Source of the DNA: an uncultured Alphaproteobacteria bacterium
GTDB lineage: Bacteria > Pseudomonadota > Alphaproteobacteria > CACZRW01
Assembly: GCA_944390645.1 (NCBI GenBank)
Contig: CALXRE010000058.1
Coordinates: forward strand, 10,737 to 74,736
Length of the DNA: 64,000 bases
Reading direction: 5' to 3'
Shown here: positions 36,427 to 53,801 of the stretch, in pieces
Position numbering within the stretch: position 1 is the first letter of the stretch
Layout of the letters: every line of letters begins with the position of its first letter
Notes under the pieces: model-generated
The model's input: the letters and a program-made list of their open reading frames with translations, nothing else
What the model was told of the DNA's origin: nothing
Databases searched by the model: none
Translations under genes and position numbers: made by a program

Positions 36427-36462
36427 TTAAATAAACTATAATCATAGTTAATGAGGATTAAA

Positions 36463-37053
36463 ATGGATAAAAATAATTTTGCTACTAATTATGATAAAAA
36501 AATCCACGATCTTTATCGTCTAATCAAAATAGATGGAAATTGCTTACGATTAAAAAAAGAAAATTGGCAAACAATTTTAAAAGTATCTTCTATCTTGGAG
36601 GATCTAGAAATAAACTATGATTTCAGTTTTATAAGAGATGATTTCTTTAAAAAGGAAGTAACTATTGTTTCCTTCGCTAATCCAAAAGATTTGCAAATAA
36701 TTAAAGACTTGTTGGTACTAGAAAATAAAAAAATTAAAGATAAAATTAGTACCGCTAGTTATGAAAATAAAATAAATATCCTTGCTGCCGTCTTTTCTGT
36801 AACAAAACAAGGTTTTCTAGAAACTCCAAAATATTTGGGAAAATCTCCTGAAGCTTTTTTCCAAACGGATTTGCGCTTTAAAATAGCTATGGAAACGCTA
36901 AGAAATTTAAATTTCTCTATAGCGGAAGTGCAACAAAAAAGAAACTCTCTCTTGTTTATTCCAGATGGAGAAAAAACTCAAAAAATCATTCAAGATATCT
37001 TAAATGCTAGAATCAATATCCAACTCGCTAATAATAAAAAAAGAACTAAGTAA
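36463..37053 (+). CDS. hypothetical protein (approx 196 aa) in the position normally occupied by pal
   Basis: GAGGA RBS 5 nt before ATG 36463. No signal peptide or OmpA-like motif; no recognisable family. Confidence 0.5.
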   Translation: MDKNNFATNYDKKIHDLYRLIKIDGNCLRLKKENWQTILKVSSILEDLEINYDFSFIRDDFFKKEVTIVSFANPKDLQIIKDLLVLENKKIKDKISTASYENKINILAAVFSVTKQGFLETPKYLGKSPEAFFQTDLRFKIAMETLRNLNFSIAEVQQKRNSLLFIPDGEKTQKIIQDILNARINIQLANNKKRTK

Positions 37054-37080
37054 AAATCCAATTTGATCTCTACTTAGAAA

Positions 37081-37503
37081 TCAAATGTTCTCTGGTTCAA
37101 GAGTTCTAATGCGTTTGCAAAGTACTGGTATTAAAGCTCTCGCTATATCTGGATGCTCATTGATAAGATCATAAATCTCTACCCCTTTAAGACGAAACAT
37201 TAAAGTATCATCTATCGCGGATATTGTTAAATCTATAGGGGCTGGATCAAATGCATAGGTTACTCCAAAAAAAGAATTCTTACCTAATTCCTTTATCGTC
37301 TTGCCTCCTTTTTCAAAGCGGACCATGCCTTGTACAATTATATATAAAGAATCTAAAATCCCTCCTTCTTTAATAATATCTGAACCAATGATAGCTGGAA
37401 CATCCGTACTCTTCCTAACTATATCGCTTAGTACGGATTCTGGAATACCTGAAAATAAAGGTATCGTTTTCAAAAATAAAACTTTCTCAAAGGTTAATCG
37501 CAT
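37081..37503 (-). CDS. stand-alone cyclic-nucleotide-binding (CAP-effector-like) domain protein with atypical phosphate-binding cassette
   Basis: G-D-x-x-Y-I-V-x-G-x-V pattern (GGILDSLYIIVQGMVRFEKGG) and FFGVTYAF cassette of the cNMP-binding beta-barrel. No HTH. 140 aa. Confidence 0.65.
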   Translation of the reverse strand: MRLTFEKVLFLKTIPLFSGIPESVLSDIVRKSTDVPAIIGSDIIKEGGILDSLYIIVQGMVRFEKGGKTIKELGKNSFFGVTYAFDPAPIDLTISAIDDTLMFRLKGVEIYDLINEHPDIARALIPVLCKRIRTLEPENI

Positions 37504-37515
37504 TACCGTAATCTC

Positions 37516-40221
37516 CTAGTCAAATACAAAATGAGCTATCCTAAATACTTCTGGACAGGGATCTTTAAAGCAGACTGCTGCAAAATCTCTTAGTTCTTCT
37601 TTAGTCGCAACTCGACTTAAAGCCCAAACAGCGGTTTCTCTAATTAAATTATCTGAATTACTACCCGCAAATAATAAAACATCTTTTAAACTCTTATCTT
37701 GGCTCTTGCCCGCAACATAAACTGCACAAGAGGTCGTCCAAGAATGTAAACTACCATTCGCATAATATATTAAATCTTTTAATCGATCAGAAAGATTTAA
37801 TGCACCTATAAACGGTGATGATGATTCTTGATACTTCTTACCGTGAGTAAACGGTAATGTAAAAGATGAGCTAATATCTCCATAATAACTTAAAAGCTTC
37901 TTTAAATTTTTTATCCTATCTTCGCTTTGTTCATGTTCCTTAGCTAAGGCAACGCCTAGAGTATTTACGGAATCCAAAAGTTCTTTATGTTCTTCTTTAC
38001 TCCGATTTATATCATTCTCTGCTGAGCTTAACCAAGCTAAATGCTCTAATTCACTCTTAAGATGCGTACTTAATATTGACGGATTTCCAAAATCAATAAA
38101 AAGATAATCTTTAGAAGTTAAAATCTTTAAAATAACCATCTGTAAATATCTTGATGAGTTATTTAAAACTTCTAATAAAATCGTTTGCGCCTTTAATCCT
38201 CCTATACGACCTATGATATTTATTAACCGTACTTGTAAAGAAATACTGTGTTCTTCAGAATATAATGCTTCTTTTAAGTATGGTAAGGCTTCTTCATCTA
38301 GCTTTAAAAGACCTTCTGTCGCATCCTCTCTGAGCTCAGGAACACTAAGTGCATAGATTAGTTCTTTGGCTAGCTTTGTTGTTCTAAGCTTGCCTGCAGC
38401 AATTACAGCTTCTCTCCTTACTTGAAGTGTCTCATCATGAAGCAAAGGAAATAAAGGACGATAATATTCCTTAATTTTAACACTACCTATGATCTGGGCT
38501 ACTAATAGCCTTTGTTCAGCATTTTCCGAGTTGATTAAACCTGCTATACTTTGAGAGGCTATAAACGATCCTTCTAATCCTCCTTTTAATAAACCTATGG
38601 CGGCTCCTTTTATCATGTTAGGATTGTTTAAATACCAAGAAACTTTCGAATATGTATTCTCTCCCCCTATAACACAATAAGCTCTTAATGCTCGATTGCG
38701 AACCTCTATTGAAGGATCTAATTCTACTAAATTTAAAATTAAAGGTAAGGCACTCTTAACCTTTAAATACTCTAATCTAGAAAGAGCAAAAAGTCTTACT
38801 CGTTCTTCAGAATTATTCAAAGAATACGAAAGTAATCGATCAATACTTGGATGTTCAGATACTTCTAAAACTCTTAAAAAATAAATCGTACTTTCTACAT
38901 CTTGATGTAAAATTTCTTCCTCTATGTAATCTTTTAAATGCTTATCTTCTAAAAATAAACGACCTCCCCACCAATAACGACTCATTAAAGTATCATATGT
39001 AATGCGGGTATAAAGACGAAAAGAAATATAAGCAAAAAGAATAATCAAAAGCGTAATTATTAATAATGAAATCGGTAAATCCCAAAATACAGGATGCGCC
39101 TCTATAAAAATTAAAAGAACTCCTGCAAAAACTATACTTACTGGTTCAACTATGATCCTTCTTACTGCTGATAGGCGTTTGCCTAAAGAAGGAAGTAAAG
39201 GAACTGAAAAGGATTTTGCTATCGGAGTAAGAACTAATTTATATATAATATCTTTCCCCATACGCGAAAAAGAAACTAGCCATAATAAAACTAAAAAACA
39301 ACCTGTCGCTCCTATAAAAATAAATATAGGAAGCGTTAATATCGTTGCTTTTAAACCTCTTATCCAAGGAAAATAATGAAATAACAATATAATAGCTAAA
39401 GTTAATAAACCTGCAAAAACATGAAACATCGCAAAAAAAGCTGTCATGTTCGATAGCCATTCTCCATATATCGCATAAACTCCTTGATAAAAAACGTAAT
39501 CGATTAAATAGCCTCCGATAATAAATAAACTTATTAAAGCAAAAAAACAGCATACAAGATATATTTGACGAGGAGAATTCTTTATTCCTTGAACGGTATA
39601 TGTTGAAGAATCTGGTTTGTGCTTATCTAAATGCTTCGCTATCCGATATAACAAAAATCCTGAAATAAATAATAAAAAGGTACTAATTAAAATTAAATTT
39701 ATTGGTAAGACAAAATAAACTAAAACCGTAACCGCAAGTCCACTTGTAATCATCGCTATAGCTTCAGTTGAAAGAATAGCTAGAAAACGCCAAGACTTCC
39801 AATCGTATTCACAAAAACGAAGTGCTATCAGCATAAAAGTAATATCGCTTAAAATAACACAAACGCTCTTCCATACCATTAATGAAGAGATAGAAAAACT
39901 GTTGTATTGACCAAAATAAAGAAGATAAAGCATCAAGGTAATAATAGATAAGGCCATCAAGGTTATTCCCGCCATTATCCCTGGTTGCTTCTTTATTCGA
40001 ATAAAATGAATCGATCCTATGCTCATTAATATACCTGATAGCATAAAGACTATCGGTAAATAGGCTCCTGAAAATTCATATAAAAAAATCGAAGAGGAAG
40101 CCGTCTCTAACATTAAAGACGAAATACGTCGTAGTAAATCACAACAAAAAAGCAAAAGTAAAAGCTTAGCTTCCTTACTCTTAAGTTGTAAAATCTCGTT
40201 TAACGTTCTATCTGATGCCAA
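37516..40221 (-). CDS. large polytopic membrane protein (10-12 TM, MFS/TLC-like) fused to C-terminal HEAT / PBS-lyase-like repeat array
   Basis: N-terminal approx 420 aa are almost entirely hydrophobic helices. The C-terminal approx 450 aa contain repeated units of type SxEVRNRALRAYCVIGG, VRREAVIAAGKL, LREDATEGLLKL, IRETAVWALSRV, typical of HEAT_2 repeats. Confidence 0.6.
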   Translation of the reverse strand: MASDRTLNEILQLKSKEAKLLLLLFCCDLLRRISSLMLETASSSIFLYEFSGAYLPIVFMLSGILMSIGSIHFIRIKKQPGIMAGITLMALSIITLMLYLLYFGQYNSFSISSLMVWKSVCVILSDITFMLIALRFCEYDWKSWRFLAILSTEAIAMITSGLAVTVLVYFVLPINLILISTFLLFISGFLLYRIAKHLDKHKPDSSTYTVQGIKNSPRQIYLVCCFFALISLFIIGGYLIDYVFYQGVYAIYGEWLSNMTAFFAMFHVFAGLLTLAIILLFHYFPWIRGLKATILTLPIFIFIGATGCFLVLLWLVSFSRMGKDIIYKLVLTPIAKSFSVPLLPSLGKRLSAVRRIIVEPVSIVFAGVLLIFIEAHPVFWDLPISLLIITLLIILFAYISFRLYTRITYDTLMSRYWWGGRLFLEDKHLKDYIEEEILHQDVESTIYFLRVLEVSEHPSIDRLLSYSLNNSEERVRLFALSRLEYLKVKSALPLILNLVELDPSIEVRNRALRAYCVIGGENTYSKVSWYLNNPNMIKGAAIGLLKGGLEGSFIASQSIAGLINSENAEQRLLVAQIIGSVKIKEYYRPLFPLLHDETLQVRREAVIAAGKLRTTKLAKELIYALSVPELREDATEGLLKLDEEALPYLKEALYSEEHSISLQVRLINIIGRIGGLKAQTILLEVLNNSSRYLQMVILKILTSKDYLFIDFGNPSILSTHLKSELEHLAWLSSAENDINRSKEEHKELLDSVNTLGVALAKEHEQSEDRIKNLKKLLSYYGDISSSFTLPFTHGKKYQESSSPFIGALNLSDRLKDLIYYANGSLHSWTTSCAVYVAGKSQDKSLKDVLLFAGSNSDNLIRETAVWALSRVATKEELRDFAAVCFKDPCPEVFRIAHFVFD

Positions 40222-40222
40222 T

Positions 40223-41140
40223 TTATTTTACTCCCATAAGGATAGCTGAATAATCTTCTGCCTTAAACTCTTGTAAATCTTCTAATCCTTCTCCTACACC
40301 TATATAGTGTATAGGTATTTTAAACTTGTCTGCAAGAGATACAATTACTCCTCCTTTCGCTGTACCGTCAAGCTTGGTAACTATTATACCTGTAACTCCA
40401 AGAATAGAACTAAATGCTTCAACTTGTAAATGCGCATTTTGACCTACTGTCGCATCTAAAACTAAAATACAAGAATGAGGGGCTTCTTTATCAAGCTTTT
40501 TTATTACTCTAACTATTTTCTCTATCTCTGACATTAGTGTACTTTTGTTTTGTAAACGTCCTGCTGTGTCTATTAGTAAAACATCATCTCCTCGTCTCTG
40601 ACTTTGCTGATATGAATCATAAATAAGACCTGCTGAATCAGAACCATGAGAACCACAAAAAACATGACTACAGGTACGTTCTCCCCATACCTTTAATTGT
40701 TCTATGGCTGCGGCTCTAAAGGTATCTCCTGCAACTAAACTAACCTTTAATCCTTCTTTCCTAAATCTATCCGCTAGTTTCCCTATTGTGGTTGTTTTCC
40801 CTGAACCATTTACTCCCGCAAATAAAATAACATATGGTTTCCTTTGCTTATCTATGGATAAGGGAACAGATACCGATTCTAATATCTTACTTATTCCTTT
40901 ACTTAAAAAAAGACGAACTTCTTCTCCTGTTACCTCTTTACCAAACTTCTCTTTGCTTAATGCTCCTAAAAGCTTCTTGCTTGTGTTGTATCCTACATCT
41001 GACATTAATAACAAATCTTCAAGTTCTTCTATGGCTGTATCATCAAGTCTCTTCTTCGTAAAAATATTACCTATACCAGAAACTAAAGAACTCGATGTCC
41101 GATTTAAGCCGCTTTTTAATCTATTGAAAAAGCCTAGCAT
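40223..41140 (-). CDS. ftsY: signal recognition particle receptor FtsY (short alphaproteobacterial form)
   Basis: SRP GTPase motifs GVNGSGKTTTIGKLA, DTAGR and TKLDGTAKGG. Confidence 0.9.
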   Translation of the reverse strand: MLGFFNRLKSGLNRTSSSLVSGIGNIFTKKRLDDTAIEELEDLLLMSDVGYNTSKKLLGALSKEKFGKEVTGEEVRLFLSKGISKILESVSVPLSIDKQRKPYVILFAGVNGSGKTTTIGKLADRFRKEGLKVSLVAGDTFRAAAIEQLKVWGERTCSHVFCGSHGSDSAGLIYDSYQQSQRRGDDVLLIDTAGRLQNKSTLMSEIEKIVRVIKKLDKEAPHSCILVLDATVGQNAHLQVEAFSSILGVTGIIVTKLDGTAKGGVIVSLADKFKIPIHYIGVGEGLEDLQEFKAEDYSAILMGVK

Positions 41141-42375
41141 TAAATAATCTCTCCCTTTAAAAGTTTATCTTCCCAGCCCGTAATCTTTACGTCTAAAATT
41201 TCTCCTGCTTTGCCTTGCTTCCCTGTCAATTTTACTGGTATATAGTGAGAATCACTACCAAAATCTGACTTCTCAAGTAAAACAGATGTTGTTAATCCTA
41301 CCCTTGAAGAAAGATAACTTGCAAGTAATCTTTCTCCTTCTTGACGTAAAAGAAATGCTCGTTCTTTCCTGATAGAAGACAAAACTTGGGGCATCTTGAT
41401 GGCTGCGGTACCTTCTCTTTCTGAATATGGAAAAACATGTAAAAGAATTATATTACATCTATTTACTAAATCTATAGTGTCTGAAAACATCTCTTCGCTT
41501 TCTGTCGGAAAACCTGTAATAAAATCCGAGCCAAAAACTATATCTGGACGAATAGATCTAAGTTTTGAACATAATGAAAAAATATCTTCTCTTCTATGAC
41601 GTCTTCCCATCCTCTTTAAAATTATGTCGTTACCTGATTGTAAAGAAAAATGAATGTGAGGCATTAAACGGTTCTCTCTTGAAAAAAGAGATATTAAATC
41701 TTCATCAAAAGCTCCTGGATCTAAAGAGCTAAAACGAAGCCTCTTAATCCCTGGAACTTCTTGTAAAAGAAGTTCTGTAAGTCCTCCTAGACGCGGATAT
41801 TTAGAGTTATCTTCTCCATAAGATGCTATATTTATACCACTAAGCACAAACTCTCTAAAACCGGCTGAAACTAACCTTTTTGCTTCAGAAACTATCCTAC
41901 AAGGAGAAACGCTTCGATTCTTACCTCTAACTTTCGGTACAATGCAAAAAGTACAATGGTAATCACACCCTTGTTGTATTTGCAAAAAAGCCCTTGAACG
42001 TCCTTCAAAACCACTTAAAAGATGATCCGAAAAACCTCCTTCTTGCATTATATCTCCTACGTTTAAAAAAGAACCCTCTCTTTTGAAATTAATCGATGAT
42101 AACTTCTCTTTGTTACCTAAAACTCTATCTACTTCGGGCATCGAGGCAAACCTTTCTGGATGAAATTGCGCCGCACAACCAGTTACAACTAAAAAGGTAT
42201 GTGGATTTTCTTTCCTAAGCCTCCTAATAGTTTGGCGACTTTGTCTCTCTGCTTCACCTGTAACTGCACAGGTGTTTACAACGGTCAAATCAATATCTTT
42301 AGGAACAATTTCTTTAATTAATTCCGATTCATACGCATTAATACGACACCCTAAAGTAATGACACGTATAGACAC
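41140..42375 (-). CDS. mtaB: MiaB/MtaB-family radical-SAM tRNA methylthiotransferase (MtaB-like)
   Basis: N-terminal MTTase domain VITLGCRINAYESE, radical SAM CDYHCTFCIVP, TRAM-like C-terminus. Confidence 0.8.
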   Translation of the reverse strand: MSIRVITLGCRINAYESELIKEIVPKDIDLTVVNTCAVTGEAERQSRQTIRRLRKENPHTFLVVTGCAAQFHPERFASMPEVDRVLGNKEKLSSINFKREGSFLNVGDIMQEGGFSDHLLSGFEGRSRAFLQIQQGCDYHCTFCIVPKVRGKNRSVSPCRIVSEAKRLVSAGFREFVLSGINIASYGEDNSKYPRLGGLTELLLQEVPGIKRLRFSSLDPGAFDEDLISLFSRENRLMPHIHFSLQSGNDIILKRMGRRHRREDIFSLCSKLRSIRPDIVFGSDFITGFPTESEEMFSDTIDLVNRCNIILLHVFPYSEREGTAAIKMPQVLSSIRKERAFLLRQEGERLLASYLSSRVGLTTSVLLEKSDFGSDSHYIPVKLTGKQGKAGEILDVKITGWEDKLLKGEII

Positions 42376-42401: not shown

Positions 42402-42971
42402 TTAATATGGGGCAGGGTACGAATTAACTGAATTTGGTTGAGAATAATAAGTGTTATTCGGATCCGTATATTGTTGTTTACCTTTGGTGATGGCATCTAT
42501 CCTTTCTTGGTAAATCTTCTTTACACTTTCAAAAGAACTCTCTAACTCATCTGGGGAAAGTTGTGCTTCTAAACGATCCCTTAAGGGAATAGCATCTGAA
42601 TACTTATCCATAACCGCAAGTTGTGCCCAACGATAAGCAAAAGAAGGACTGTGGGGAAGTATCGTACCTGTATTGTACATCTTTGCTATTTCAAATTCTG
42701 ATGGACCGTGTCCTCGGCTAGCGGCCGAAAGTAAACAATCAACAGCATCTACTCTTTCTTTCTCATCTTTGGAATCCCTAAGTGAAAGTGCTGTATGGTA
42801 TAATTCTTGAACATCTTTTATATTCTTGCAGCGTTCTGATGTATAGGTAAAGTAATTTATAGGTTGATCTGATAAAGTAGAGGATTCACTGCTAAAAGAA
42901 ATTGTAGGAATTCCTAAAATCCCTAAAATAAAAGATAGATAAATAAACTTAGGCATTGTATTCTCCGCCAC
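42402..42971 (-). CDS. secreted Sel1-like repeat protein
   Basis: N-terminal signal peptide (FIYLSFILGILGIPTISFS). Sel1/TPR-like segment AASRGHGPSEFEIAKMYNTGTILPHSPSFAYRWAQLAVMD. Confidence 0.5.
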   Translation of the reverse strand: MAENTMPKFIYLSFILGILGIPTISFSSESSTLSDQPINYFTYTSERCKNIKDVQELYHTALSLRDSKDEKERVDAVDCLLSAASRGHGPSEFEIAKMYNTGTILPHSPSFAYRWAQLAVMDKYSDAIPLRDRLEAQLSPDELESSFESVKKIYQERIDAITKGKQQYTDPNNTYYSQPNSVNSYPAPY

Positions 42972-44963: not shown

Positions 44964-46286
44964 TTGCAAACAGAAACTTTTAAATATACTAGCTATCTAT
45001 TTCAGCCTGAGCTTGGACTACTTACTTTAAATTATGCAGTCGATGATAAATATTCTTTCTCTGAAAAAATATTCTTCCCAAAACCTTTTAGATCTTTAAA
45101 TCAAATAGAACTTAAAGCTCTCGATCGTGTTTTTAGGGCTCTTCATATCGCTGCTGGAATAAGTTATTATAAAGCTTTCTTATCCCCTAAAATGGAAATC
45201 TTAACAGAACCTTTGAATCATAATGAGGTCATATTCTTTAACGACTTCTATATCAAAGGATTGGGAGAATTTTCTTTTCGAAATGATGTCAGTATAAAGC
45301 CAAATTTTACTCCAATAGCAAAGTATTCTTATCCTGAAACTATTGAATTACCTAAAAAAATTTTATTGCCTGTAGGGGGTGGAAAAGATTCTTCGGTCGT
45401 AACGGAAATCTTAAAAAATGCTGGATATAAACCTGTTCTTTTTTCTGTTGGTAATCCTCGACCTATTAAAGATTGTATGAAGGTTGCTAATCTGGAAACT
45501 TTAATCGTTAAAAGAGAAATATCTCCTTTGTTGTTAAAACTTAATGAGGAAAATAATATCTTAAACGGTCATGTCCCTGTTACTGGAATTCTTTCTTTTA
45601 TTATGGTCGCTGCTGCTTTATTATATGGTTTCTCAGATATTATTATGGCAAATGAACGTTCTGCAAATGTCGGAAATGTCAAAAAAAATAAGCTTATAGT
45701 TAATCACCAATGGAGTAAATCTCTTGAATTCGAAACCTCTTTTCGAAACTTTATAGCTCAAAATTTATTCATAGGACTTGAATACTTTTCTCTTTTACGA
45801 GGAATGTCAGAGCTTGCTATTGCAAAAAAATTTGCATCCCTTAAACAATATCATACGGTCTTTACTAGTTGTAATCATGCTTTTAAAATCGATGAAACTA
45901 AACGAATTGATCGTTGGTGTTGCTTGTGTGATAAATGCCGTTTCGTCTTCTTGGCTTTGGCTCCTTTCTTATCAAAAAATGAAATGATAAAAATATTTGG
46001 TACAAATCTCCTCGCTGAACCTTCTCAAGAAAGAGGATACAAAGAGTTGTTAGGTCTTAGTGCTTATAAACCTTTCGAATGTGTCGGAGAAATTAAAGAA
46101 TCTGCTGCCGCTCTATCTTTGTTGGCTTCTGAAAAAGACTGGAAAGATGAATATATCGTCCAAAAATTGTTCCCAGAGGTATTTAAAAAATATGGAGATT
46201 GTCAAAACTTTATTCGTGAAGCCTTCTCTAAATCTAATAAACATAATATACCAACGGAGTTCTTAAGTGCAGTTGATAGAGCTTGA
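44964..46286 (+). CDS. PP-loop ATP-pyrophosphatase-like protein with Cys cluster (candidate MurL-type epimerase partner of the adjacent Mur ligase)
   Basis: TTG start with GAGGA RBS. PP-loop-like LPVGGGKDSSVV; Cys cluster DRWCCLCDKCRF. Translationally coupled to the downstream Mur ligase. Confidence 0.5.
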   Translation: MQTETFKYTSYLFQPELGLLTLNYAVDDKYSFSEKIFFPKPFRSLNQIELKALDRVFRALHIAAGISYYKAFLSPKMEILTEPLNHNEVIFFNDFYIKGLGEFSFRNDVSIKPNFTPIAKYSYPETIELPKKILLPVGGGKDSSVVTEILKNAGYKPVLFSVGNPRPIKDCMKVANLETLIVKREISPLLLKLNEENNILNGHVPVTGILSFIMVAAALLYGFSDIIMANERSANVGNVKKNKLIVNHQWSKSLEFETSFRNFIAQNLFIGLEYFSLLRGMSELAIAKKFASLKQYHTVFTSCNHAFKIDETKRIDRWCCLCDKCRFVFLALAPFLSKNEMIKIFGTNLLAEPSQERGYKELLGLSAYKPFECVGEIKESAAALSLLASEKDWKDEYIVQKLFPEVFKKYGDCQNFIREAFSKSNKHNIPTEFLSAVDRA

Positions 46287-47517
46287 AAAACAAAAAATCG
46301 CTATCTGGGGGCAGGGAAAAGAGGGTAAGGCTGTCGCTAAATTCCTTTCTGAAAAAAAAATCAATTTCTCTTTCATTGATGATAAAGAAAAAAATTTAGA
46401 AAAATTCTCTTTCATCTTTAAATCTCCAGGAGTCAGTCTGTATAAACCTGAAATATCCTTGGCAAGAAAAAAAGGTGTTTTCTTCTCTTCTGCAACTAAT
46501 TTATTCCTTGCTCAAATTAAACAACTCAAAAAACGACCATTCCTAATAGCGGTTACTGGAACTAAAGGAAAAAGTACTACTTCTTATATGATAGCTCATA
46601 TACTTTCTTCCCTCGGTTATAAAACTTTCTTGGGCGGAAATTTCGGTACTCCTATTTTAGAAGCCTTGGATAACATTCAAAATTATGACTTCATCGTAGC
46701 TGAAATATCTAGTTACCAAGCTGCAGATTTAAAATATGGTTTTGATGCATCTTTGCTTAATAATCTCTTCCCTGAGCATTTAAATTGGCATCTATCTCAT
46801 GAAAATTATTATCGGGATAAATTAAATCTACTTGCTCTTACTCCTATGAATATTGTAAATGCTGCTGATCCTAAAACCCTAGAAATGACTAAAAAAATAA
46901 AAACTATTCCTTTTAATATTCCAGAAGGTTTCCATATAAAAGATAATTGTATATATAAAAAAAATATAAAATTCTTAGATAAAAAAATCCCTTTGTTAGG
47001 TTATCATAATCTTAGTAATTTATGTGGCGCTTTAACTATGATTTATAACTTAGGGCTAAACTTAAATTATAATAAAATATTAAAGGCTATTGATGCTTTC
47101 AAACCTTTACCTCATCGCTTGCAAATATTCGAAAAAAATAATCAATGGTTCGTTGATGATAGTATTTCTACAACCCCAGAAACAGCTATCGCCGCATTGG
47201 ATGTCTTCTCGGATAAAAAAATTACTTTAATTGCTGGCGGCTTCGAACGAGGTCAAAATTATCAAAAATTGGCAGAAAAAATCTATGATAATAACGTTAA
47301 ACTGGTTGCTATACCAAATACTGGTAAGCGAATTGCTTTAGAAGTACGAAAACTAGGCGGTGAAGTCTATGAAGTCGATAATATGGAACTTGCTGTCTCT
47401 AAAGCTAAACAAATAACCCCTATTGGGGGTGTAATCCTTTTATCTCCTGCTGCTCCTAGCTATGGGGTATATAAAAACTTCGAAGAAAGAGGAAATACTT
47501 TCGTTTCCTTAATATAA
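46267..47517 (+). CDS. stand-alone MurD-like UDP-N-acetylmuramoyl-L-alanine--glutamate ligase (candidate MurD2)
   Basis: Mur ligase P-loop AVTGTKGKSTTSYMIAHIL, central and C-terminal Mur ligase domains, MurD-like N-terminus IAIWGQGKEGKAV; 416 aa; outside any dcw cluster. Confidence 0.65.
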   Translation: MQLIELEKQKIAIWGQGKEGKAVAKFLSEKKINFSFIDDKEKNLEKFSFIFKSPGVSLYKPEISLARKKGVFFSSATNLFLAQIKQLKKRPFLIAVTGTKGKSTTSYMIAHILSSLGYKTFLGGNFGTPILEALDNIQNYDFIVAEISSYQAADLKYGFDASLLNNLFPEHLNWHLSHENYYRDKLNLLALTPMNIVNAADPKTLEMTKKIKTIPFNIPEGFHIKDNCIYKKNIKFLDKKIPLLGYHNLSNLCGALTMIYNLGLNLNYNKILKAIDAFKPLPHRLQIFEKNNQWFVDDSISTTPETAIAALDVFSDKKITLIAGGFERGQNYQKLAEKIYDNNVKLVAIPNTGKRIALEVRKLGGEVYEVDNMELAVSKAKQITPIGGVILLSPAAPSYGVYKNFEERGNTFVSLI

Positions 47518-50190: not shown

Positions 50191-51687
50191 TTATTGGGTA
50201 GATAAAACCTTTTCAAGGTATTTGCTTAAGTTTTCCATAACTTGAATCCTTGCATAACGCTTGTTATTACCTGAAATAAGTACCCAGGGCGCATACCAGG
50301 TGTCACAAAGCTTAAGCATATCATTAAAAGCTTTTACATAATCATCCCATTTCGAACGATTCCGCCAGTCTTCATCGGTTATCTTCCATTCTTTGTATAT
50401 GGTATTCTCTCGCTCCTTAAAACGTTTTAATTGTTCATCTTCTGAAATACAAAGTAAAAATTTGATAATATGATTCTTCTCTTTTACTAAAAGATCTTCA
50501 AAATAATTTATTTCTTCATAACCTCTAATCCAATCTCTTTCAGAAGTTAGTTTCTCTACTCTTTCAACTAAAACTCTCCCATACCAACTACGATCAAATA
50601 CGGTCAAAAGCTTCTGTTGATTGAAATCTTTCCAAAAACGCCACAAAAAATGATGCTCTAACTCTTCTTTGTTCGGAGCTGATATCGGAAAAATATTGAA
50701 ATCATGAATGTTTAAGGAGGATGTCATGCGAGTTATCGATCCTCCTTTACCAGAAGCATCGGTTCCTTCAAAAACTGTAATTACTTTTTCTCCTTTGGTC
50801 TTTATCTCCATAAATTGGCGATTTAAAATAGCCCGTAACTCTATAAGCTTTTGATTATATTCTTCTTTAGATAAAGAAAGACTTAAGTCTACATCTTCAA
50901 ATCGAGAAGATAATGAAATACCTTTCTCTTTTATCAATTCTTTTAATTCTATCTTCGGCTTGTCTCCTTGCTTGCTATCTAATGCTTTCTCTATGTGGTT
51001 ACAAAAATCTTTGAGTGTCTTTTCTATGCGTCTGTTTAAATTACTTTCTTTTATAAAATACCATTTCGCATAATCTTTATCCGTATACTTAATTATCTTC
51101 TTCGTAGCTTCTGAAAAATTATCGTGAAGAGACATGTTCGCAAAATCATCAGAAGTTACTCGCCAATTCTCTAAAGGATCTGACGAAATGCTTTTTAAGT
51201 ACTTCTCTTGATCTGCTTTATCCATATAAAGCCAAAATTTAACTATTATTGCTCCCCAATCCGATAATGTCTTCTCAAAAAAATTTAACTTATCTAACAT
51301 CGTGTGAAATTCTGCTTCATTGCATTCTTTATGCGCATATGCTGATAATGGATTTGAATACCATGAACTAACAAATAAACCAATCTTACCTTCTGGCGGT
51401 GTGTCAACCCAATATCTACGAAACTCTTGCATACTGTTCTTCATCTCACTTCGATCATAAGCCTTTAATATGAGATACTTGTTATTAAGCCATTCCCTTA
51501 AAAGCTCGGTTACTTGATCTTTACCTGCTCCATTTACTCCGCAAAATACTGCAATAACGGCTCTCTTCGATGAAACTACTTTCTCTTGCAACTTGATAAG
51601 ACGTTCTCTAAGCTTTTCCTCGGTTTCTTCATCTAAATCTATATAAGCGTTCGTATTTACTTCACTAAAAATCTCTTTATCACTCAC
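50191..51687 (-). CDS. ppk2: two-domain polyphosphate kinase 2 (PPK2 family; possibly polyphosphate:AMP/ADP phosphotransferase)
   Basis: Two tandem PPK2 modules, each with a P-loop (FCGVNGAGKDQ and FEGTDASGKGG) and lid regions; 498 aa. Confidence 0.75.
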   Translation of the reverse strand: MSDKEIFSEVNTNAYIDLDEETEEKLRERLIKLQEKVVSSKRAVIAVFCGVNGAGKDQVTELLREWLNNKYLILKAYDRSEMKNSMQEFRRYWVDTPPEGKIGLFVSSWYSNPLSAYAHKECNEAEFHTMLDKLNFFEKTLSDWGAIIVKFWLYMDKADQEKYLKSISSDPLENWRVTSDDFANMSLHDNFSEATKKIIKYTDKDYAKWYFIKESNLNRRIEKTLKDFCNHIEKALDSKQGDKPKIELKELIKEKGISLSSRFEDVDLSLSLSKEEYNQKLIELRAILNRQFMEIKTKGEKVITVFEGTDASGKGGSITRMTSSLNIHDFNIFPISAPNKEELEHHFLWRFWKDFNQQKLLTVFDRSWYGRVLVERVEKLTSERDWIRGYEEINYFEDLLVKEKNHIIKFLLCISEDEQLKRFKERENTIYKEWKITDEDWRNRSKWDDYVKAFNDMLKLCDTWYAPWVLISGNNKRYARIQVMENLSKYLEKVLSTQ

Positions 51688-53801
51688 TGCTTATCTCCTG
51701 CTTTCTTTAAAATCTTATTCTTATCTGATAACGAAAGATGGGAAAGATTACAAAAAAAATCTTGGCTGTTGAAAACCTTTTTATTCTCTCCATTACTTAA
51801 ACGAGTATATTGCATATCTTTGTCTAAAACCCAACTTTGTCCTTTGTCTAGAATCTCTGCTCTCATAATCTCATTCATTATTCTATCGTGAATCTCATCA
51901 TCTATTATCGGTATTAATGTCTCAACCCTCTCTTGCATATTCCTGTACATTAAATCTGCTGAAGAAATATAAACTTTAGCTTTCTTCGAGGGTAAAATAT
52001 GTCCGTTCCCAAAACAATAAATCCTCGCATGTTCTAAAAACCGTCCAATAATGCTCTTTACTCTAATGTTCTCTGATAATCCTTTTATCCCTGGTCTTAA
52101 AACGCAAATCCCTCTGACTATTAATTCTATTGAAACTCCTGCCCTCGAAGCTCGATATAATGCATCAACTATGTTCGCATCTACTAATGCATTCATCTTC
52201 GCCCAAATAAATGCTGGTTTCCCTTTTTGCGCATTCTTTATTTCATTCTCTATTAATGAAATTATTTTCCCTCTTAAACTTAAAGGGGCAATCGTAAGAT
52301 AACTTAAATCTCTTGGAATAATACCTCCGGTAAGGTAATTGAAAACCTTAATACCATCTAAACATAATTCCTTATTACAACTGAAAAACGATAAATCCGT
52401 ATATGTATTCGCTGTGTCCGGATTATAATTGCCCGTACCAAAATGAGCATATGTTTTTATCCCTTTATCTTCATTCCTAGTAACTAATGACATCTTAGAA
52501 TGCGTTTTGTATTCCCTAAGACCAAAAAATACTTTTACTCCAGCTTTCTCTAAATCCCTTGCCCATTTTATGTTCGCTTCTTCATCAAACCGTGCTCTTA
52601 GCTCTACTACAGCAACAACATCTTTCCCATTCTCCGCTGCTTGAATCAATGACTTGATAATTGGTGAGTCCTTACTGGTTCGATATAAGGTTTGTTTTAT
52701 AGAAATAACGTTTATATCCTTAGAGGCTTGCTTTAAAAATTGAACAACAAAATCAAAAGATTCATATGGATGATGAAGTAATATATCTTGCTTACTTAAA
52801 AAAGAAAAAAAATCACTAGAAAACTTCTTCTGCTTGTTGATTTTTTTCGGCTTGTAATCTTTAAAACTCAGATCTGGACGCTCTGGTACTTCTATACTAC
52901 TTAATTGCTTAATCCCTATAAAACCATCTATTAAAATTATATCTTCTGAATCAACATAAATATCTTCTGATATAAAACGGATTAAATCTGAAGGTGTCTT
53001 CTTATCTATTACTAAACGAACTACTGAACCTCTCTTCCTCCTTTCTAACGCTATCTCAAAACCTTTTACTAAATCATCCGCTCGTTCATCAAATTCTACT
53101 ATACTGTCTCGAACAATATAAAATATCCCTCTCCCCATAACTTCATGATCTGGAAATAATATCTCTATAAATAAAATTATCGCTTCTTCAACAGGTAAAA
53201 AACGAATCTTCTCTCCTGGAAGCCTTATAAAACGTTTCAAAATGTTTGGTAAGGGGATTAATACTCTTTTCTCTTCTTCTGAAAAATTACCTTTGTTCCT
53301 TAATGATAAAATTAAAGTTTGTTCTTGATTTAAAAGTAATGGAAATTCATTGTTAGCATTCTTAACTATTGGCGTGATTAATGGAAAAATCTCTCTCGTA
53401 AACTTATCCTTCAACCAGTTTATGTCTTCTGCACTTAAATTCTTTGTTTTAATTATTTCTATACCTTGATTCTTTAGTTCTTTAAATAATGTTTTGCATA
53501 TAGATGATTGTTCTGCATGTATACTGTTAGCAGAATTCCTAACCATACGAATCCTTTCTGATACGCTTTTACCATCATCACTTAAAAGATTTATCCCTGC
53601 TTTTAATTGCGCTTTAAGCCCAGCGTACCTAACCATATAAAACTCTTGTAAATTAGAGCCAGATATAGCTAAAAACTTAACTCTTTCTAGTAAAGGATAA
53701 CGTGGGTTCTCGGCTTCTTTTAAAACTCGACGATTAAATTCTAGCCATGAAAGTTCTCGATTGAAAAATCTACTTGCAGAGGCAAAATCTATCGTTTCCA
53801 T
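51684..53801 (-). CDS. ppk1: polyphosphate kinase 1
   Basis: 705 aa. N-terminal FFNRELSWLEFNRRVL, typical of PPK1, and two PLD-like HxK-containing C-terminal domains (HSKMSLV). Confidence 0.88.
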   Translation of the reverse strand: METIDFASASRFFNRELSWLEFNRRVLKEAENPRYPLLERVKFLAISGSNLQEFYMVRYAGLKAQLKAGINLLSDDGKSVSERIRMVRNSANSIHAEQSSICKTLFKELKNQGIEIIKTKNLSAEDINWLKDKFTREIFPLITPIVKNANNEFPLLLNQEQTLILSLRNKGNFSEEEKRVLIPLPNILKRFIRLPGEKIRFLPVEEAIILFIEILFPDHEVMGRGIFYIVRDSIVEFDERADDLVKGFEIALERRKRGSVVRLVIDKKTPSDLIRFISEDIYVDSEDIILIDGFIGIKQLSSIEVPERPDLSFKDYKPKKINKQKKFSSDFFSFLSKQDILLHHPYESFDFVVQFLKQASKDINVISIKQTLYRTSKDSPIIKSLIQAAENGKDVVAVVELRARFDEEANIKWARDLEKAGVKVFFGLREYKTHSKMSLVTRNEDKGIKTYAHFGTGNYNPDTANTYTDLSFFSCNKELCLDGIKVFNYLTGGIIPRDLSYLTIAPLSLRGKIISLIENEIKNAQKGKPAFIWAKMNALVDANIVDALYRASRAGVSIELIVRGICVLRPGIKGLSENIRVKSIIGRFLEHARIYCFGNGHILPSKKAKVYISSADLMYRNMQERVETLIPIIDDEIHDRIMNEIMRAEILDKGQSWVLDKDMQYTRLSNGENKKVFNSQDFFCNLSHLSLSDKNKILKKAGDKQ

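Follow-up and report, generated by a model that had tools for sequence, protein, structure and literature searches.

Two genes at the distal end of a tightly packed minus-strand gene string in the 64-kb window (the whole stretch of DNA that was analysed, 64,000 nucleotides) probably encode a two-subunit membrane complex derived from the NTT-HEAT/cNBD family, which would use neither canonical cAMP/cGMP gating nor canonical ATP/ADP exchange; we put the probability of this sequence-based reading at roughly 0.55. The large subunit would be an inner-membrane protein in which a 12-TM MFS-fold domain of NTT/TLC descent leads into a cytoplasmic HEAT solenoid, and the small subunit would be a cytoplasmic protein with the cNMP-binding fold, presumably co-translated with the large one and taking the place of the C-terminal cNBD of single-chain relatives. 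Because it holds the position of the fused cNBD, the small subunit would most likely bind to the HEAT arm or to the cytoplasmic face and modulate the membrane domain. Both 'nucleotide' functions appear to have been rewired in this alphaproteobacterial clade. The architecture itself is not new: fused NTT-HEAT-cNBD proteins, as well as NTT-HEAT genes with a cNBD gene within a few nucleotides, were described in 2017 (Major, Embley & Williams 2017, Genome Biol Evol 9:480; PMC5381601), with NTT-HEAT members that include cyanobacteria, Chlamydia trachomatis and oomycetes. The new point here is that, judging from search scores, the gut/rumen alphaproteobacterial clade of the window is an isolated long branch: in an exhaustive profile search the scores fall from about 1500 bits within the clade to about 380–410 bits outside it.

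The string reads mtaB-ftsY-NTT-HEAT-cNBD. Its upstream gene, mtaB (41140..42375, minus strand), codes for a tRNA methylthiotransferase (NCBIfam TIGR01579, 405 bits against a cut-off of 357) and overlaps by 1 nt the SRP receptor gene ftsY (40223..41140, minus strand; TIGR00064, 323 bits, cut-off 261), whose TAA stop codon lies 1 nt ahead of the TTG start of the NTT-HEAT gene. The latter encodes 901 aa (37516–40221, minus strand) and is followed by the ORF for the 140-aa cNBD protein (37081–37503, minus strand), so that ORFs, Pfam matches and AF2 models bear out the original prediction of a protein with TM and HEAT regions encoded next to a cNMP-binding protein. Directly 3' of the cNBD stop codon there is a single terminator-like hairpin with a T-run (37036..37077, minus strand) and a 13-pair stem that contains only three G-C pairs; it is likely to be the end of the transcription unit, as a consensus match of a kind that is not found in the region above the shuffled expectation. 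Promoter scans were uninformative (17 sites versus 24 expected). The gene spacing, the single hairpin and the conserved synteny, with mtaB in the equivalent position at L001, L004, L005, L006, L009 and L010, are consistent with an operon that joins the NTT-HEAT/cNBD pair to ftsY and mtaB, as had been proposed.

A profile search of genome contigs with the alignment of the window clade (A3) found two MAGs only, and the nearest relatives of the window are MAGs from sheep colon and rumen; a query for records identical to the window protein returned none. Against the loci L005, L006, L001 and L004, respectively, the NTT domain is 80, 59, 54 and 48% identical, FtsY 78, 60, 56 and 55% and the cNBD protein 89, 74, 44 and 43%. 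The 901-aa and 140-aa proteins are conserved at a level like that of FtsY or MtaB, and no other protein of the string is conserved as well as the cNBD when the window is compared with L005 and L006. Identities of this order indicate strong purifying selection on both proteins, which argues that the NTT-HEAT/cNBD pair is functional.

The AF2 model of the 901-aa protein (pLDDT 86.6) has 12 predicted TM helices (residues 15–413) in a 6+6 arrangement, in agreement with hydropathy, followed by about 12 HEAT-like hairpins. The membrane domain (residues 1–415; 38977..40221, minus strand) appears from the AF2 model, Foldseek and intermediate homology to be an NTT/TLC-derived, strongly diverged domain with the MFS fold. 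The best membrane matches of the model in Foldseek were AtNTT1 (9j3l_A, E 2.7e-5, TM 0.53) and CpNTT1 (9j3n_A, E 4.3e-5, TM 0.55). Pfam recognized no family in residues 1–420, with no match to TLC (PF03219) even at E<=1 and none to MFS, and an NCBIfam search of the N-terminal domain gave no assignment. By itself, the membrane domain matched the TLC-positive protein P0021 at E 2e-6 and P0042 at E 1.6e-19. In hhalign comparisons, the clade alignment A3 was linked to A7 (Prob 99.9, E 6e-37, 827 columns) and A7 to A6, an alignment of stand-alone TLC proteins (E 1.6e-41), whereas the direct comparison of A3 with A6 was not significant; the NTT homology therefore runs through intermediate sequences and fold comparison, and along this route a kinship of the domain to TLC/NTT proteins with the MFS fold is supported. 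Similarly, the clade-only profile A3 missed the NTT structures in PDB and the family-wide profile A2 reached 9j3n and 9j3j at about 3e-14. The expectation of a TLC/MFS-like transporter region is supported by intermediates and fold and not by a direct Pfam match to TLC or MFS.

Four charged residues, K155, E245, E385 and K527 of AtNTT1, are critical in characterized NTTs (PMC4256464). Their equivalents in the 901-aa protein are P56 or a gap, S119 (with K118 adjacent), D241 and F365, so that one of the four charges is kept, the TM7 acidic residue (D241); at the TM4 and TM11 sites the register against AtNTT1 is uncertain by about one residue. The K/R-x-x-K/R-D motif of TM1 reads E-T-A-S-S-S. Since three of these intramembrane charges, on which ATP/ADP exchange by characterized NTTs depends, are lost, the substrate of the membrane domain, if there is any, is probably handled in another way, and the suggestion that the system serves nucleotide uptake from a host finds no support. 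The charge loss does not by itself prove that nucleotide transport was lost, because the microsporidian ThNTT1 and ThNTT3 also differ at three of the four critical positions (PMC4256464). Within the clade, polar or charged intramembrane residues are conserved at E39, K118, D/E125, D140, E153, D/E241, R354-R355 and E359. In comparison with the canonical NTT/Tlc proteins (PF03219; AtNTT1 and Chlamydia pneumoniae NTT1; structures 9j3j, 9j3l and 9j3n), the window protein shares the 12-TM MFS fold but differs in the lack of a direct profile match, in most of the signature charges, in the addition of a 485-residue HEAT arm and in belonging to an organism without any sign of being an energy parasite.

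The HEAT arm (residues 416–901; 37519..38976, minus strand) is predicted to be a cytoplasmic solenoid built from some 12 HEAT-like helical hairpins. Pfam assigned this C-terminal half to HEAT_2 (E 1.3e-19, 70.7 bits, cut-off 27.7) and HEAT (28.7 bits, cut-off 23.5), with HEAT_EZ matching as well, and the AF2 secondary structure comprises about 24 repeat helices at 427–900, with a long central hairpin (714–778) and a disordered loop (781–804). Its strongest PDB sequence matches, among alphaRep and HEAT structures, were alphaRep designs. The HEAT_2/HEAT_PBS repeat type is shared with PBS-lyase/NblB-type proteins (CpcE/F, NblB and the alphaRep scaffold), but the likeness is confined to the repeats, the lineage is non-photosynthetic, nothing points to bilin chemistry and the scores fall well short of the equivalog cut-offs; an identity as a PBS-lyase/NblB protein was rejected (NblB, 32 bits versus a cut-off of 300).

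A HEAT solenoid is a typical platform for protein-protein interactions, and this, together with the lost transporter signature residues, speaks for a non-transporting scaffold or sensor, in which the MFS domain would be an anchor or transceptor and the solenoid would recruit the cNBD-like protein and others, possibly in connection with the neighbouring SRP-receptor gene. The linkage to mtaB and ftsY, which persists at loci with NTT-HEAT proteins that are only 22–26% identical, could be read in the same way. We consider such a role unlikely: the TM domain, including its polar and charged intramembrane residues, is conserved like FtsY, as would be expected of an active permease more than of an anchor, and the linkage may be inherited gene order without functional meaning, other neighbours being found at L007, L008 and the P0022 contig.

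The 140-aa stand-alone cNMP-binding-like protein (37081..37503, minus strand) matches PF00027 with E 9.3e-11 (42 bits, cut-off 27.5), and Pfam detected in it no DNA-binding or other effector domain. It resembles CRP/PKA-type cNBDs (PF00027), a group with members that regulate channels and transporters, in its predicted fold of a beta-barrel plus helices, in a Pfam score over the cut-off and in the retained FG motif and C-terminal helix; unlike them, it has no attached effector, and any role it plays would be that of a separate subunit. When it is aligned with CRP, PKA RIalpha and the fused homologues, a degenerate phosphate-binding cassette (PBC), FFGVTYAFDPAPIDLTISA, is seen at residues 78–96 (37216..37272, minus strand). 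Relative to the canonical FGE…R[ST]A, it has Val in place of Glu, Ile in place of Arg and Asp at the following Ser/Thr position; the absence of Glu and Arg had been noticed before, to which the Asp substitution is now added. The Arg is missing from every clade member (the window, L001, L004, L005, L006, L009 and L010), and the window copy has lost the Glu as well.

These substitutions bear on the canonical form of the mechanism, a cyclic-nucleotide-gated nucleotide transporter in which the cNBD would bind cAMP made from ATP and the HEAT arm would relay the signal and tune nucleotide uptake by the NTT domain. Gating of this kind has already been put forward for the family by Major et al. (PMC5381601), and it accords with the NTT descent and fold of the membrane domain, with the canonical Glu and Arg in 62 of the 82 cNBD domains fused to family members and with the intact PBC of the split partner in Sulfurimonas gotlandica (L007). 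For the window proteins it is unlikely, given an acidic residue at the phosphate-contacting Ser/Thr position, the altered TM1 motif and the missing signature charges and TLC match. With the loss of Arg, Glu and Ser/Thr, the residues by which cyclic phosphate and ribose are held, canonical cAMP/cGMP gating is itself improbable here on sequence grounds, and the ligand-gated mechanism of the original prediction becomes doubtful; a non-canonical cNBD could bind a cyclic nucleotide in another way. We would offer only as a speculative and rather improbable extension that the NTT-HEAT/cNBD pair has been neofunctionalised in gut-associated Alphaproteobacteria into a non-nucleotide permease or transceptor whose pseudo-cNBD senses some other ligand or none, and that its place in the mtaB-ftsY operon was fixed through a role in membrane or envelope biogenesis and not in energy or nucleotide import.

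The two-subunit reading draws further on comparison with fused relatives, whose existence had been anticipated and with which the window genes are colinear. Over its whole length, the 901-aa protein matches the fused 1123-aa protein P0009 (residues 6–892 on 5–947, BLASTP E 1e-54), and the 140-aa protein aligns with P0009 residues 970–1097 (31% identity, E 7e-22) and with fused P0008 (E 9e-22), in the identity range of 31–32%. The domain order in the fused proteins is MFS/TLC, HEAT and cNBD, with the cNBD at the C-terminus. By the colinear full-length homology, the HEAT repeats (PF13646/PF02985) and the cNBD immediately downstream, the window pair belongs to the NTT-HEAT family as defined from sequence. 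In AF2 models, the fused P0009 forms one compact three-domain body (pTM 0.81), and the 901-aa protein without its partner has a pTM of 0.67. The family is large: the exhaustive search returned 726 representatives at E<=1e-30, amounting to hundreds of 50%-identity clusters, and 76 of 184 proteins in the sampled family set carry a fused cNBD. A separate cNBD gene (137–151 aa) lies 3' of the NTT-HEAT gene in all nine related unfused loci that were looked at, the two genes overlapping by up to 7 nt or lying up to 59 nt apart; the split is therefore stable and does not reflect a recent break. Thus, a cNMP module that had appeared to be split off here follows the rule for unfused members, in the two-gene form published in 2017 (PMC5381601).

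At the gene junction (37504..37518, minus strand), the TAG stop codon of the NTT-HEAT gene overlaps an AGGAG Shine-Dalgarno-like motif (37513–37517) and is separated from the ATG of the cNBD gene by 12 nt (TAG-GAGATTACGGTA-ATG), confirming a closely spaced downstream gene and correcting the earlier spacing of 13 nt. Because the stop codon overlaps the motif, we infer that translation of the small subunit is probably coupled to that of the large one on a shared mRNA. That the two genes are independent and the cNBD protein works in some other place, say as an unattached cNMP receptor, is very unlikely, since the pair co-occurs in 9/9 loci across distant taxa, the two modules are repeatedly fused in one chain and the 140-aa protein lacks an output domain. 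The notion that a nonsense mutation recently broke an NTT-HEAT-cNBD fusion and left the downstream ORF as a remnant, to which one is led by the shared reading frame (…FVFD*EITVMRLTF…, one stop and four codons apart) and by a spacer that matches the roughly 8-residue linker of P0009, is exceedingly improbable: the split is shared by every relative down to 41% identity and by distant lineages, spacings and frames vary among loci, each cNBD gene begins at a start codon of its own and the cNBD leads the string in conservation against L005 and L006. These conservation data effectively refute a pseudogene or recent-fission origin.

NTT-HEAT proteins are widespread, and the family has been described bioinformatically. 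With published members the window pair shares the order of NTT-type membrane domain, HEAT repeats and cNBD and the operon form in which a cNBD gene follows within a few nucleotides, whereas its clade differs in having no Pfam TLC match, a degenerate cNBD PBC and a location behind mtaB-ftsY (PMC5381601). The window clade therefore offers a natural contrast, a two-subunit form under strong selection that has lost the canonical cNMP pocket and NTT charges, and setting it beside PBC-intact members, such as that of Sulfurimonas, could reveal which parts of the module are indispensable. It also counsels caution before such genes are labelled ATP/ADP antiporters or taken as evidence of host-dependent nucleotide scavenging. 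The 64-kb window carries ordinary envelope and housekeeping genes.

The two open reading frames lie on the minus strand as the original prediction had them: a 901-aa NTT-HEAT protein (37516–40221), with a membrane domain and a HEAT arm, and a 140-aa protein consisting of a cNMP-binding domain (cNBD; 37081–37503). In the large protein, Pfam recognised HEAT_2 (E 1.3e-19), HEAT and HEAT_EZ in the C-terminal half and no family in residues 1–420; the small protein matched PF00027 cNMP_binding (E 9.3e-11), and NCBIfam added sub-threshold repeat matches only. Protein searches retrieved close relatives of the large protein (878–899 aa) and, at ~25% identity, 1123-aa proteins combining MFS/TLC, HEAT and a C-terminal cNMP_binding domain (residues ~999–1081), so the single-chain relatives mentioned in the original prediction do exist. 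Residues 6–892 of the large protein align with residues 5–947 of one fused homologue, P0009 (E 1e-54), and the small protein with its residues 970–1097 (31% identity, E 7e-22). Thus, the two genes are colinear with one fused chain, and the 12-nt spacer between them falls at an ~8-residue linker of P0009. The pair belongs to the NTT-HEAT/NTT-HEAT-cNBD family described in 2017 (Major, Embley and Williams; PMC5381601), whose members are uncharacterised and of which later papers reuse the term only. An exhaustive profile search found 726 cluster representatives at E ≤ 1e-30; among 184 proteins, 70 had one fused cNBD and 6 had two. The architecture itself is already published and widespread, and the window pair is a diverged representative whose nucleotide-related motifs are degenerate. 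Its best matches outside the window clade (gut and rumen alphaproteobacterial relatives) are unfused. A third length class (P0038, P0042, P0048 and P0049; ~1250–1280 aa), which ranks among these matches, lacks a cNBD and carries an additional C-terminal HEAT/Arm block behind the usual NTT-HEAT body.

The AF2 model of the large protein (35-sequence alignment; pLDDT 86.6, pTM 0.67) has 12 predicted TM helices (6+6), in agreement with the 10–12 helix transporter-like region first proposed, followed by ~24 repeat helices. Hydropathy fits this topology and, combined with the positive-inside rule, predicts that the two termini and the HEAT arm are cytoplasmic. The best Foldseek membrane matches of the modelled fold in the PDB were AtNTT1 (9j3l, E 2.7e-5) and Chlamydia pneumoniae NTT1 (9j3n, E 4.3e-5), which outranked POT, VMAT2 and OCT transporters. 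The clade profile had no direct match to TLC proteins or NTT structures, but it matched TLC-positive NTT-HEAT proteins over 827 columns (E 6e-37), and these matched stand-alone TLC proteins (E 1.6e-41). The family-wide profile matched 9j3n and 9j3j at ~3e-14, and the N-terminal 415–423 residues alone matched P0021 (E 2e-6) and TLC-positive P0042 (E 1.6e-19). The proposed TLC relationship therefore holds through intermediates and fold and not directly, and the membrane domain is probably of NTT origin.

The AtNTT1 motifs were located in what we take to be its sequence; the stretch with E245, E385 and K527 was confirmed by the 9j3j alignment, and K155 was placed via the C. pneumoniae NTT1 alignment. 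These four charged residues are important in transport and conserved among NTTs (PMC4256464). Their equivalents in the large protein are a gap or P56 of an LPIVFM motif (K155), S119 adjoining K118 (E245), D241 (E385) and F365 (K527); in TM1, E-T-A-S-S-S stands in place of K/R-x-x-K/R-D, and ITFMLIAL replaces QFWxxAN. Some microsporidian family members likewise depart from the charged set at three of its four sites (PMC4256464). In the window clade, the membrane domain would probably not work as a canonical ATP/ADP exchanger. Apart from the acidic residue D241, the canonical charges are lost from a domain whose predicted fold is still that of NTT transporters. We consider a non-transporting scaffold rather unlikely.

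Fused family members mostly have the canonical FGE…PR(S/A)A phosphate-binding cassette, with Glu and Arg both present in 62 of 82 fused-domain sequences. The window cassette, FFGVTYAFDPAPIDLTISA, lacks both, as had been noticed from the sequence, and has Val and Ile in their place. Among related loci, Glu is also lost in L005 (a sheep-colon MAG; Ala), L008 (Lys) and L010 (Leu) and kept in L001, L004, L006 (a rumen MAG), L007 (Sulfurimonas gotlandica) and L009. The Arg position holds Ile in L005, L006 and L009, Ser in L001 and L004, and Arg in L007 and L008; L010 has no Arg (Pro or Ser, the alignment being ambiguous). The following position, where Ser or Thr normally contacts phosphate, is Asp, Asn or Glu in the window clade. 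Decay of the cNBD was rejected: no other protein of the mtaB-ftsY-NTT-HEAT-cNBD string is as well conserved relative to L005 (cNBD 89%) and L006 (74%), and the cassette segment DPAPIDLTISA is identical in L006 and differs in L005 by one Asp-to-Asn change. In the clade the signal is probably not canonical cAMP/cGMP binding. A canonical cNMP-gated nucleotide importer, whose cassette most fused relatives retain, is improbable for the window pair.

The junction reads …FVFD-TAG-GAGATTACGGTA-ATG, which bears out the close downstream cNBD gene but gives a spacer of 12 nt, not 13 nt. Both frames are the same (…FVFD*EITVMRLTF…), separated by one stop and four codons (37501–37530, minus strand), and an AGGAG motif overlaps the TAG stop, an overlap that would couple synthesis of the two proteins in roughly equimolar amounts. 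Upstream, the stop of ftsY (TIGR00064) lies 1 nt ahead of the NTT-HEAT TTG start, and mtaB (TIGR01579) overlaps ftsY by 1 nt; the sole terminator-like hairpin outside coding sequence (37077–37046) directly follows the cNBD stop. The model of P0009 shows its three domains packed into a compact body (pLDDT 89, pTM 0.81); the small protein may dock at the position of the fused cNBD and modulate the membrane domain.

A separate 137–151-aa cNBD gene lies directly downstream in nine of nine readable unfused loci. Spacing is 12 nt in L005 (NTT-HEAT 78% identical to the window), 18 nt in L006 (52%) and 59 nt in L001 (47%), with a 7-nt overlap in L004 (41%); for the partners of P0011 (L007), TLC-positive P0021 (L008), P0013 (L009), P0016 (L010) and P0022 it is 3, 24 and 8 nt, a 7-nt overlap and 16 nt, respectively. 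With spacing and frame varied, the split is stable, as is the operonic pairing; the cNMP module is a separate gene as predicted, though not peculiarly in this genome. Two functionally independent genes are very unlikely beside this constant pairing. A recently broken fusion gene, despite the shared frame, is rejected by the same nine loci. The cNBD is in frame with NTT-HEAT in five of nine loci with DNA (window, L005–L008) and at offset 2 in four, a difference not significant given shared ancestry. Loss of one stop codon would restore the fused chain, which suggests, from sequence, an easy route between the forms.

Purifying selection acts on the module. Identities to the window in L005, L006, L001 and L004 are 80, 59, 54 and 48% for the NTT domain, 76, 47, 41 and 40% for the HEAT arm, 78, 60, 56 and 55% for FtsY and 74, 61, 56 and 56% for MtaB. 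The gene order is common to the window (37081–42375), L009 (3001–6212) and L010 (3001–6170), yet the NTT-HEAT proteins of the latter two are only 22–26% identical to that of the window despite FtsY identity of 48–53%; hence either the module has diverged at an unusual rate on one or more of these branches or it was replaced in situ. In L001 and L004, with similar FtsY divergence, the NTT-HEAT parts are still 40–54% identical. In the exhaustive search the clade comprised two full-length 50%-identity clusters only, and scores fell from ~1500 bits within it to ~380–410 bits outside. G+C content is ~33% in the window, 45% in L005 and 49% in L006, a large shift among fairly close relatives (NTT-HEAT 78% and 52% identical).

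The window also carries ruvB, ybgC-tolQRAB, dsbD, a murL-like epimerase and Mur ligase, coaE, ppk2 and ppk1; alphaproteobacterial MAGs from sheep colon and rumen are its closest relatives. Neither these genes nor these relatives show signs of an intracellular energy parasite, so the suggested uptake from a host finds no support.

A 189-aa protein (42402–42971, minus strand), encoded 26 nt upstream of mtaB, carries a hydrophobic segment at its N terminus and weakly matches Sel1/TPR-like repeats (AlgK_TPR, E 3e-8). Its gene may open the transcription unit, with a weak promoter-like site nearby (42983–42955); unannotated 162–201-aa ORFs stand at the equivalent place in L001, L004, L005 and L006. 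Convergent with the cNBD gene, a 200-aa ORF (36451–37053, plus strand) without a family match overlaps the hairpin at 37046–37077 with its 3' end; similar-sized ORFs occur at the equivalent position in L004 and L005. The MurL-like UDP-MurNAc-L-Ala-L-Glu epimerase (NF041275, E 5e-125, under the equivalog cut-off) adjoins the MurD-like ligase (44964–47517, plus strand), resembling the MurD2/MurL route to peptidoglycan D-Glu of Xanthomonadales; the pair also stands beside dsbD in L001 and L004. Finally, the window's two polyphosphate kinase genes, ppk1 (705 aa) and ppk2 (498 aa, two domains), lie side by side on the minus strand (50191–53801).
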